Shown piece after piece: positions 6,663 through 8,877 of a stretch of DNA of 64,000 nucleotides; within the stretch, counting starts at the first letter, position 1, and every line of letters starts with the position of its first letter. The notes under the pieces were generated by a model that was not told where the DNA came from, did no database searches, and saw only the letters and a list, made by a program, of their open reading frames with translations. The translations under genes were made by a program, and so were the position numbers. The stretch lies in contig CAVYRW010000004.1 of assembly GCA_963771045.1 (NCBI GenBank), positions 640,001-704,000 of the forward strand. Direction: 5' to 3'. The stretch comes from Waddliaceae bacterium. GTDB lineage: Bacteria; Chlamydiota; Chlamydiia; Chlamydiales; SLFE01.

Positions 6663-8090
6663 TTATCCTTTAACCACAAGATGCGGTTTAAGTCTGGCGA
6701 CCATTTTTGCAAGGCCGGCTTTATCCACAGCCTCAACGACTTGGTCGACATTTTTATAAGCGTCAGGCATTTCTTCGGCAATTGTGCGGTAGGAATTGGC
6801 TTTGACGATGACGCCTTGTCCTTCCATATATTGAATGGGGTCTTTTCCCTTCCAGGATTTCATGGACTTATGGCGGCTTCTCGCTCTCCCTGCGCCGTGG
6901 CAGCAGCTCGACCAGGTGAGGGGGTTGCCAAGTCCGGCGAGAAGGTAGCTGGCGCGCCCCATATCTCCGGGAACAAGGACAGGCTGCCCCGTTTTTTGGA
7001 AGATCGGCGCAAGCTCCGGGTGGCCCGGGCCGAAGGAGCGGGTGGCTCCTTTTCTATGGACGCAAAGCTTTCGTTTTTTTCCGTCGACTTCATAAGTTTC
7101 GAATTTGGCAATGTTGTGGCAGACGTCGTAGATCTGCCGCACCTCTTCGGCAGGGAGGCCTAAAACTTCCGCAAAGCTTCTTCTGACGTAGTGGAGGATT
7201 TGCTGGCGGTTGTTGAACGCATAGTTGGCCGCCGCGGCCATCGCGGCAAAGTAGCGCCTGCCGGCATCGCTGTTTATAGGAGCTGCGACAAGCTGACGGT
7301 CGGGCAGGCCTTTGTCATACCCTAATTTCATAAAGCTGTCCAGGGTATCCTGACAGGTCTGGTGGCCGAAGCCGCGCGATCCGGAGTGGATGAGGATGTA
7401 AATATTTCCCTGCTGAATGTCCCACTCGCTCGCCATCTCATCGGACAGGATTTTTTGCACTTCGCCGATCTCGACGAAGTGATTGCCGGAACCGACGGTG
7501 CCGACCTGCCTGCGTCCGCGATCGCGCGCATGGCTGGAGATGGCGTCAAAGTCAGCTCCTTCGATGACGCCATGGCTTTCGGTATGGTCTAAGTCTTGCG
7601 AAAGGCCGAAGCTGTTTTCTACAGACCATTTGGCTCCTTTTGCAATCAGTTGCTTGTAATCGGCATCGGCTAATCCTTTTTTTTCTTTATGCCCTTTGCC
7701 GATACCTGAGGGGACATGTTTGAAAATCGCTTCGATCAGGTGATTTTTTTGTTTTTCCGTCAGTTCTTTAAAGGGCGCGGAGATGATGGCAAGGCGCACT
7801 CCGCAGTTGATGTCGTAGCCCACACCTCCCGGGCTGATCACTCCTTCTTCGGCGTCCATGGCGGCCACGCCGCCGATGGGAAAGCCATACCCCCAATGAA
7901 TGTCTGGCATGGCAATGCTGTGGCCGACAATGCCCTGAAGCGTTGCGACGTTTCTCACCTGCTCAAGGGGTTTTTCCATTTCAATGTCGCTTAAAAGTTC
8001 TTCAGTGCCGATAACAAGTCCGGGGACTTTCATTCCGCCCTCTTTAGGGAGCAGATACATGCCTTCTTGAAATTTTTCCAGATTAAACAT
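6663..8090 (-). CDS. rtcB: RtcB RNA ligase
   Basis: MPDIHWGYGFPIGGV, GYDINCGVR, GSGNHFVE, HSGSRG, HN, HRKGAT, PGDMG, HGAGR, EEMPDAYK. ATG 8090 overlaps the upstream stop codon. Confidence 0.97.
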   Translation of the reverse strand: MFNLEKFQEGMYLLPKEGGMKVPGLVIGTEELLSDIEMEKPLEQVRNVATLQGIVGHSIAMPDIHWGYGFPIGGVAAMDAEEGVISPGGVGYDINCGVRLAIISAPFKELTEKQKNHLIEAIFKHVPSGIGKGHKEKKGLADADYKQLIAKGAKWSVENSFGLSQDLDHTESHGVIEGADFDAISSHARDRGRRQVGTVGSGNHFVEIGEVQKILSDEMASEWDIQQGNIYILIHSGSRGFGHQTCQDTLDSFMKLGYDKGLPDRQLVAAPINSDAGRRYFAAMAAAANYAFNNRQQILHYVRRSFAEVLGLPAEEVRQIYDVCHNIAKFETYEVDGKKRKLCVHRKGATRSFGPGHPELAPIFQKTGQPVLVPGDMGRASYLLAGLGNPLTWSSCCHGAGRARSRHKSMKSWKGKDPIQYMEGQGVIVKANSYRTIAEEMPDAYKNVDQVVEAVDKAGLAKMVARLKPHLVVKG

Positions 8091-8877
8091 CGACAATCAT
8101 CTCCCATTCCAAGATGTGATTTTTTTGAGCAAGCCTGCCATGGTAGCTCACCGCTTTAAAAGGGACTCCGATTTCCGTATCGGCTGTTGAAACGACTTTG
8201 TTAAGAGACGAGATGATGTCATCTAAGCTGACAGGCAGTTCATTGTTTTTTACGAAGGACAAAATCTCGGGACACTCGAATGCTAGTGCTGTCAGCGCAT
8301 GTTCAAAAATTTCGTTTGTCGAACGCCCTCTGATTCGAAAAGCGATGTCCGCTGTGTGTTCCATTTCCTCATAAGGAGGGAAGAGGGGACTCTCCCACAG
8401 CGATCGATACTCGGAATTCCCCATGCTCTCAAATAGGTGGATATTTGTCAGAGTCACGGGGAGGGGGTGAAAACTGTCCGTCCACTCTTTCGGGTTGAAT
8501 TTTCCTCTCGAAATCGTGATGTGGGGTTTAAAATCCCTCTTCTCGACAGGGTAGCCGTGTTGTTTTATCCATTCGAGCAGCGAACGATGGAAAGCTAAGA
8601 GTTCGTTTTCTCTTTTGCGGAGGTTCACCCGCCAGGCGGCAACACGCGGCTGTTTTTCGGGAAAAAACAGGCATTTGTCTAAAATTCCGGTAAAGCCGAG
8701 GTCGAAAAAAGGTTTGGGAAAATCTTCAAGATTTTCCATAAGTTTTTCAATGCCAACGCTTCCTAAAAAAGCCAGTGTCATGTGGCGGGAAGGCTTGGCG
8801 ATAATTTTCCCTTTAGGGAATTTTTCCGGCCAGGGAGCATGACTTTCCATAGCAAAAAATACACGTTTCTTTTCCAC
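8083..8877 (-). CDS. Fusion of RNA 2',3'-cyclic phosphodiesterase (2H family, ThpR/LigT) and archease
   Basis: RVFFA, HMTLAFLG, FKPHITI and LFES (2H domain), then YEEMEHTADIAFRIRG, KAVSYH and C-terminal IVDV (archease). Confidence 0.9.
   Translation of the reverse strand: MEKKRVFFAMESHAPWPEKFPKGKIIAKPSRHMTLAFLGSVGIEKLMENLEDFPKPFFDLGFTGILDKCLFFPEKQPRVAAWRVNLRKRENELLAFHRSLLEWIKQHGYPVEKRDFKPHITISRGKFNPKEWTDSFHPLPVTLTNIHLFESMGNSEYRSLWESPLFPPYEEMEHTADIAFRIRGRSTNEIFEHALTALAFECPEILSFVKNNELPVSLDDIISSLNKVVSTADTEIGVPFKAVSYHGRLAQKNHILEWEMIVDV

Follow-up and report, generated by a model that had tools for sequence, protein, structure and literature searches.

A ThpR-type phosphoesterase–archease fusion encoded with rtcB in environmental Chlamydiota, and the decay of its archease half in copies unlinked from rtcB

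In the genome of a Waddliaceae bacterium (assembly GCA_963771045.1), a gene that fuses a 2H phosphoesterase of the ThpR type to a short archease lies immediately upstream of rtcB, which encodes an RNA ligase. The gene pair is located in a stretch of 64,000 nucleotides, here called the window (contig CAVYRW010000004.1, positions 640,001 to 704,000). Across Chlamydiota genomes, the archease half of the fusion depends on RtcB and the 2H half does not. The archease half appears to serve RtcB, and the 2H half to be independent of it, because copies linked to rtcB keep both sets of motifs, whereas unlinked copies lose the archease residues but keep the HxT motifs. Both protein families and this type of operon are known already; the fusion and its pattern of loss are new.

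The fusion gene (8083..8877, minus strand) is one open reading frame (ORF) of 264 amino acids without internal stop, and its GTG start is backed by the conservation of R5 and F7 in relatives. The 2H phosphoesterase domain spans approximately residues 1-165 (8383..8877, minus strand) and was recognized by structure matches in VIA and Foldseek. It carries the proximal motif HxTxxF (H32-M-T-L-A-F37; 8767..8784, minus strand), which aligns with H43, T45 and F48 of E. coli ThpR, and the distal motif HxTxxR (H119-I-T-I-S-R124; 8506..8523, minus strand), which aligns with ThpR H125, T127 and R130. The archease domain, residues 169-264 (96 amino acids; 8086..8373, minus strand), was identified by Pfam Archease and VIA. 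It is acidic (16 D+E versus 8 K+R) and contains the motifs E173-H-T-A-D177, K241-A-V-S-Y-H246 and the C-terminal D263-V264. The downstream rtcB gene (6663..8090, minus strand) encodes an RNA ligase of the archaeal/Thermus/metazoan type with 475 amino acids from its ATG (Pfam RtcB, E 5e-158). An earlier note, made from the sequence of this DNA alone, had described one 264-residue ORF with both 2H motifs and an archease whose end overlaps the rtcB start. The ORF, its motifs and the Pfam matches bear this out, and the overlap comprises 8 nucleotides, ATGTTTAA (8083..8090, minus strand). At this junction the final codons and stop of the fusion gene read GAT GTT TAA, with the rtcB ATG at 8090-8088 inside; translation could instead begin at an in-frame TTG located two codons before the ATG. 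A GGAG located 10 nucleotides ahead of the ATG is supplied by the conserved W-E-M codons of the fusion gene. The overlap suggests that translation of the two genes is coupled. Promoter and terminator scans gave results at chance level.

The divergently oriented M42 aminopeptidase gene (window 8929-9985, plus strand) is split across two frames near 9116-9141, and ligA and a glycogen branching-type gene (G000:C4:1568938-1572683, L230) are likewise split, so the assembly probably has indel errors. Despite these frameshifts elsewhere, the fusion is not an assembly artefact, since 215 of 400 candidate proteins are homologous, the best 120 of them align over 97-100% of the query length, and matches occur in 132 of 301 genomes. 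Two separate genes in relatives, which the earlier note had named as grounds for giving up the fusion, were thus not encountered among these best 120 homologs. Named homologs of the protein are chlamydial. In a custom profile search of its own genome the fusion gene was the only match; a PF02834 search was too blunt and overlooked the fusion gene itself. A search for split forms gave 6 short matches among 96 candidates, archease-side pieces of 99-138 amino acids that are known without context and are possibly fragments. A triple fusion with RtcB found no match among 6041 longer candidates, which is weak evidence. The sole long match among 150 representatives was a phosphoribosyltransferase fusion, P0239 (596 amino acids, known without context), which joins phosphoribosyltransferase, 2H and archease parts with long insertions. 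In 5 of 52 loci, free phosphoribosyltransferase genes are found close to the module.

To both halves of the protein, family profiles and structures could be assigned. Pfam LigT_PEase scored 31.2 bits (cut-off 23.3) and Archease (PF01951) 34.9 bits (cut-off 25), the latter over model positions 1-31 only. Of the profiles that the earlier note had named for a check, these two matched above cut-off, and 2_5_RNA_ligase2 reached 26.4 bits, just below its cut-off of 27. The NCBIfam equivalog TIGR02258 gave 60.2 bits (65.0 for the best fused relative), which is below its cut-off of 65.7, and the fusion is therefore filed as ThpR-like and not as a member of TIGR02258. An AlphaFold2 model built with 120 relatives had a predicted local distance difference test score (pLDDT) of 96.6 and a predicted template modelling score of 0.91. 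For residues 1-167, VIA returned Z-scores of 16.8 for a D. radiodurans cyclic phosphodiesterase (CPDase), 16.0 for the P. horikoshii 2′-5′ ligase and 15.2 for E. coli ThpR, and Foldseek matched the 2H half to LigT/ThpR with E 3.6e-9. In 120 proteins H32, T34, F37, H119 and R124 are invariant and T121 is present in at least 90%. The half thus has the two HxT motifs (H32-x-T34 and H119-x-T121) on a 2H fold that mark the superfamily. It also has the extended motifs HxTxxF and HxTxxR, with F37 and R124 invariant, which define ThpR and are reported absent from USB1, YjcG and AKAP18 (Remus et al. 2014, PMC4201822; this and the other papers are cited from the sections available). With these ThpR motifs present, and with Usb1 structures only at Foldseek ranks 39-46 (E 6e-4 to 3e-3, 6-9% identity), the half is not of the Usb1 type. 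It probably has ThpR chemistry. E. coli ThpR opens RNA with a 2′,3′-cyclic phosphate end (RNA>p) to a 2′-phosphate, on which RtcB is inert, and it also hydrolyses 2′,3′-cyclic AMP (PMC4201822). By homology with characterized enzymes, a 2′-phosphate is the predicted product here.

For residues 166-264, VIA gave Z 10.3 for T. maritima TM1083 (85 residues aligned, root-mean-square deviation 2.6) and 8.3 for human archease (8ODO). H174, D177, K241, D263 and the terminal V264 are all invariant in the 120 proteins. Matched by motif and order, they correspond to H9, D12, K117, D141 and I142 of P. horikoshii archease, changes of which reduced RtcB activation (PMC3973293). Fold, PF01951 match, N-terminal H and D, K, C-terminal D and free terminal carboxylate of an archease are thus all in place. 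In the human RTCB complex, archease D51, D178, the I179 carboxyl and K156 bind a third Mn and phosphate (PMC10944509). The RtcB encoded here belongs to the archease-dependent (archaeal/Thermus/metazoan) type, with full-length fold, metal ligands and guanylylated His present; phmmer matched it to T. thermophilus TTHA1785 (E 1.5e-139) and to P. horikoshii RtcB (E 5e-137). Its residues D63, D93, C96, N203, H204, H235, H325, N326, K347 and H398 were kept in 68 of 68 aligned relatives. The T. thermophilus enzyme, its closest solved relative, shows multiple turnover only with archease (PMC4604427). By analogy with these characterized proteins it is very probable that the archease half activates RtcB, and guanylylation and multiple turnover are likely driven by it.

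The distribution of the fusion was assessed in 301 Chlamydiota genomes from 165 genera. It was found in 132 genomes and 82 genera, and RtcB of any type in 131 genomes. All 30 genomes of family f4, which is likely Chlamydiaceae (about 1.0-1.3 Mb among those listed), lack a fusion match. The survey of linkage that the earlier note had proposed confirmed the operon, with rtcB adjacent and co-oriented in 110 of 125 full-length genome copies. In 102 of these 110 the ATG that overlaps the fusion end opens the RtcB frame. In metagenomes, rtcB lay directly downstream in 72 of 80 kept fusion loci; the other 8 have at most 84 nucleotides downstream. Both 2H motifs were kept in 80 of 80; the scan patterns were the archease motifs, so that archease conservation in these loci is built in. 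An Atlas cluster with both Pfam families has 254 members and is commonest in Chlamydiota. The module was absent from 72,556 plasmids and from the viral contigs searched, and RtcB matches on plasmids were less than 46% identical. ThpR-family matches occurred in 128 genomes, 124 with the fusion and 4 among the 169 without a fusion match. Eight fusion genomes have an extra canonical ThpR above cut-off, and the fused 2H motifs were intact in all 7 with a full-length copy, which hints that a free ThpR is no replacement for the fused one. The module consists of two genes. As a larger operon it was rejected: even the most frequent neighbour family occurred in only 12 of 52 long loci, and none of the 12 most frequent families that were scanned has to do with RNA repair. 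A ROK kinase gene downstream of the module here recurs in 3 of 52 loci. Two genomes have a different arrangement. Genome G297 (88% complete) holds a chlamydial-type rtcB (61%; L048:4066-5424, plus strand) without a fusion match in the genome, and the ORF upstream of that rtcB was considered as a part of the module and found to be unrelated. Genome G067, which has a free ThpR and no fusion, joins cytidylate kinase to a full-length archease within a single frame of 381 amino acids (L049:2873-4015, plus strand), convergent with a distant (46%) rtcB (L049:4026-5471, minus strand).

The separation of the two halves was observed in natural knock-outs. All fusion matches of the genome sample were fetched, giving 134 copies in 132 genomes. 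Nine were excluded: three frameshifted or broken (G195, G234, G054), four partial or at contig ends (G167, G199, G095, G285) and two without the 2H half (G132, G044). The remaining 125 full-length single-ORF copies comprise 110 upstream of rtcB and 15 unlinked ones. All 110 linked copies keep the extended 2H motifs and the archease residues H-D/E-K-D-V/I. The archease motifs are decayed in 14 of the 15 unlinked copies, the remaining one (G127) being intact though no RtcB was found there. This agrees with the tie between archease half and RtcB that had been claimed beforehand. Among the 14 decayed copies, 12 have full 2H motifs, one has R changed to K and one H32 to Y, so that both HxT motifs are present in 13. 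On a FastTree phylogeny of the 2H half, decayed copies occupy at least four separate places, each beside linked copies (parent-node supports 0.82-0.93). The archease surface residues D233, G237, A242, S244, H246 and V264 are kept in none of the 14, and the core residues A194 and A197 in all 14. A model of one unlinked copy showed unchanged secondary structure (pLDDT 93.3). In the 2H half, F71 and W132 are the sole conserved positions with a decay specific to unlinked copies, and this only in part.

Six of the 14 decayed copies occur in genomes without an RtcB-family match (G034, G041, G107, G025, G161, G294; 93-100% complete), and five of these six have intact 2H motifs. The other eight coexist with some RtcB: five with a distant bacterial type, one with a second archaeal-type operon and two with a linked copy. 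Ratios of non-synonymous to synonymous substitution rates (dN/dS), some of them saturated and from kin that are not independent, were calculated for each half. The 7 recent unlinked pairs had values of 0.03-0.22 in the 2H half and of 0.22-0.42 in the archease half. For 11 linked pairs, constraint on the archease half was about equal to that on the 2H half, or stronger. An older paralog clade contributed 4 pairs, with both halves constrained (0.06-0.18). A set of 149 representatives (50% identity), available without genomic context, included 105 with both halves intact, 31 with an intact 2H half and decayed archease and 2 with neither.

Two of these lineages deserve separate mention. In the older paralog clade, from genus g13 (L042-L045; G061, G149, G161, G294), the decayed archease half has come under purifying selection once more (dN/dS 0.07-0.15) and may have taken a new role; two genomes hold such a copy beside an intact linked one. 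Genome G039 has a second, distant operon of rtcB, CobW GTPase and archease (L050:3969-6724, plus strand), and its ThpR–archease fusion has a decayed archease. It is possible that a transferred operon replaced the original one. It is unusual in its own right that a CobW metal chaperone separates rtcB from archease.

From the fusion, the overlap, the motifs and the pattern of loss we infer, tentatively, a module of RtcB activator and end-triage phosphodiesterase that sorts broken RNAs between repair and disposal. We rate this reading above each alternative and slightly short of even. The archease half would recharge RtcB with GMP, so that many RNA breaks could be sealed, and the ThpR-type half would open 2′,3′-cyclic phosphate ends to 2′-phosphates, beyond the reach of RtcB. 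Breaks held together with a 5′-hydroxyl (5′-OH) partner in place would be sealed by charged RtcB; free cyclic ends would be opened by the 2H half and then passed to decay. Such triage might limit mis-joining and futile use of GTP, and the arrangement as a fusion with overlap would set how much activator, eraser and ligase is made relative to each other. As the eraser would be of use without RtcB too, the 2H half would survive loss of rtcB. In favour of triage are the 110 linked copies that all have both motif sets, and the 14 of 15 unlinked copies that lost the archease, 12 of them with full ThpR motifs. A parallel in mammals is the 2H enzyme CNP, which reduces RTCB-mediated splicing (review PMC13247085).

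As to substrates, sources of cyclic-phosphate breaks are plausible. Waddlia is reported to have HigBA and MazEF modules (PMC10880633), and a HigB-like match, interrupted by an internal stop, is present in the genome studied here; that toxins of the HigB or MazF type supply the substrate is conjecture. Introns of tRNA were rejected as a substrate, the two ARAGORN intron calls looking spurious and an intron-free tRNA-Asn being present. An ATP-dependent RNA ligase was rejected as a partner, the one weak RNA_ligase match in the genome being LigA.

Several observations weigh against triage. No enzyme that removes or recycles a 2′-phosphate end was found, RtcA being present in only 4 of 301 genomes and Tpt1 in 0 of 300. 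No RtcA was found in the genome studied here (90.6% complete), so the statement of the earlier note that neither rtcA nor rtcR is nearby holds for rtcA; for rtcR none of the 9 scanned window ORFs matches, and no family search was made. The sole genomes with RtcA (G110, G131, G174, G203) all carry the linked fusion module, with rtcA on other contigs. The TIGR02258 score below cut-off and the identity to ThpR of about 24% mean that the product could differ. Among the 149 representatives, 5 combine a mutated and 6 a gapped 2H half (5 truncated, 1 deleted) with an intact archease. The linked copies of G132 and G044 (L216:339-941, plus strand, and L219:589-1275, minus strand) lost most of the 2H domain while archease and rtcB remain, and are natural minimal archeases; RtcB can thus occasionally manage without the 2H half. 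Binding of archease and of RNA to human RTCB is mutually exclusive (PMC10944509), so a tether need not bring the 2H site to the RtcB substrate, and direct hand-over would be limited. Lastly, a 2H half that is kept in the absence of RtcB would be expected just as much of an uncoupled passenger.

According to this last alternative, which we consider unlikely, an ordinary ThpR, acting on cyclic ends and 2′,3′-cyclic nucleotides, joined an archease gene once in an ancestor, and the halves are independent and share only promoter and start. Each half indeed outlives loss of the function of the other, and the absence of 2H positions that decay in unlinked copies, apart from partly F71 and W132, leaves no RtcB-facing surface visible. 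Chlamydial archeases also share a frame with other partners, namely the cytidylate kinase in G067 and the phosphoribosyltransferase in P0239, and hydrolysis of 2′,3′-cyclic AMP by ThpR (PMC4201822) would suit an enzyme with a task of its own. However, all 110 full-length linked copies, from many families, are one ORF with both halves intact. ThpR-family matches in only 4 of 169 genomes without the fusion indicate that ThpR is not a general need of the phylum, and a second ThpR relaxed the fused one in none of 7 cases. A passenger therefore explains the losses as well as triage does, but less well the rarity of fission and the retention beside a second ThpR.

Less probable again is repair of 2′,5′ linkages, in which the 2H half would cut aberrant 2′,5′-phosphodiesters by transesterification to RNA>p and 5′-OH ends, and archease-charged RtcB would reseal them as 3′,5′ bonds. 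E. coli LigT/ThpR is reported to interconvert 2′,5′ linkages and cyclic phosphate/5′-OH ends reversibly (Arn and Abelson, cited via PMC4201822; PMC3400036). It cuts 2′,5′ and not 3′,5′ bonds, favours cutting, and its products are substrates of RtcB (PMC4201822, PMC3400036). This would also remove the paradox of a dead-end product in genomes without RtcA or Tpt1. On the other hand, ThpR hydrolyses single-stranded RNA>p and would destroy the intermediate, so that repair must outrun hydrolysis (PMC4201822). In the sections available, Remus 2014 knows of no E. coli RNA with 2′,5′ bonds (PMC4201822), and the 2H half persists where no RtcB was found. If this reading were true, LigT/ThpR, long an orphan, would gain a pathway, and with it a kind of RNA repair without description in the literature searched.

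The earlier note had proposed an uncharacterized heal-and-seal machine, with three options for the 2H half: to yield 3′-phosphate ends for RtcB, to recycle 2′-phosphate ends or to gate ligation. Gating fits the data best. The first option, opening of the cyclic phosphate to a 3′-phosphate, which would bypass the slow cyclic-phosphate step of RtcB, is poorly supported and in our view very improbable. Tight linkage and overlap with rtcB would suit it, and a 2H enzyme that leaves a 3′-phosphate exists in yeast Usb1 (PMC5591277, PMC7026655); human USB1, which had been named as the precedent, leaves a cyclic phosphate according to the same papers. Against it, RtcB opens cyclic phosphates by itself (PMC4201822, PMC4604427). 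All 110 linked copies retain the extended ThpR motifs that USB1 lacks, ThpR stands well ahead of Usb1 in the ranking of structures, and identical 2H motifs persist without RtcB. Recycling, in which the 2H half would make 2′-phosphate ends joinable with GTP or the help of RtcB and so replace the absent RtcA, is the least probable of all, since we know of no energy input for cyclization in the 2H fold and the half persists without RtcB. In its favour are the rarity of RtcA (4 of 301 genomes), which can cyclize a 2′-phosphate (PMC3854526), and P. furiosus PF0027, reported to join 2′-phosphate and 5′-OH ends with GTP, a joining that is weak and called mysterious (as cited in PMC4201822).

Compared with known systems, the module is closest to the archease-rtcB "tRNA splicing operon" of P. 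horikoshii, T. thermophilus and other prokaryotes (PMC3973293, PMC4604427), with which it shares adjacent genes, the RtcB type and residues matching archease H9, D12, K117, D141 and the terminal carboxylate (PMC3973293). In contrast to that operon, the chlamydial archease has about 96 amino acids instead of about 140, forms the C-terminal half of a 2H fusion and overlaps rtcB by 8 nucleotides, and the fused form is spread across environmental Chlamydiota. The 2H half shares with E. coli ThpR/LigT (PMC4201822) the fold, both HxT motifs, the extended F and R residues and an aromatic near the N-terminus, F7 here likely being ThpR F8. It differs by the low identity, the score below the TIGR02258 cut-off, the fusion to archease and the link to rtcB, whereas free ThpR has no assigned pathway; Remus 2014 (PMC4201822) and Popow 2012 call the role of bacterial ThpR/LigT open. 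In the E. coli rtcBA(R) operon (PMC3854526), RtcB is likewise paired with an enzyme that acts on RNA 3′ phosphate ends. RtcA, however, makes cyclic phosphates and can rescue 2′-phosphates, the reaction predicted for the ThpR-type domain runs in the opposite direction, and no rtcA lies beside rtcB here. Mammalian control of the RTCB substrate by CNP, RTCA and ANGEL2 (PMC13247085) also sets a 2H cyclic phosphodiesterase against archease-dependent RTCB, but as separate proteins and with CNP as a distant 2H class (Z 5.1). The fungal and plant heal-and-seal ligase Trl1 (PMC4201822, PMC3400036) likewise has a 2H CPDase within an RNA repair machine. Its ATP-dependent ligase needs the 2′-phosphate that RtcB rejects, and the chlamydial module has neither a kinase nor an ATP-dependent RNA ligase. 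No paper describing the fusion was found in the literature searched, including the sections available of PMC4275035 and PMC6777427, and an earlier mention in surveys or supplements is possible. Both domains already carry names in automatic annotation (JGI, "SHS2 domain-containing protein/2′-5′ RNA ligase"; the Atlas cluster with both Pfam families). The expression "new system" used beforehand was too strong for what is a lineage-wide variant of the archease-rtcB operon.

Elsewhere in the window, an ORF of 183 amino acids resembling a nucleotidyltransferase (weak NTP_transf_5, DUF6036 and AbiEii matches) overlaps an ORF of 83 amino acids without Pfam match in a low-GC stretch (10922-11717, plus strand), and together they resemble a small pair of the toxin-antitoxin type. 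Two very large overlapping ORFs of 1365 and 2002 amino acids (15246-25342, plus strand) are possibly a single giant gene broken by a frameshift. An ankyrin-repeat protein (1591-3108, plus strand) has an N-terminal region without Pfam match.

The module brings RNA repair to approximately four in ten of the sampled Chlamydiota genomes and, in family f4, to 0 of 30. The conserved fusion to an RtcB activator provides a genetic link between ThpR and RtcB, through which the role of bacterial ThpR/LigT becomes testable with two small soluble proteins. In the natural knock-outs archease residues track RtcB across lineages, and an archease of 96 amino acids is probably sufficient; this is useful for understanding or shrinking activators of RTCB.

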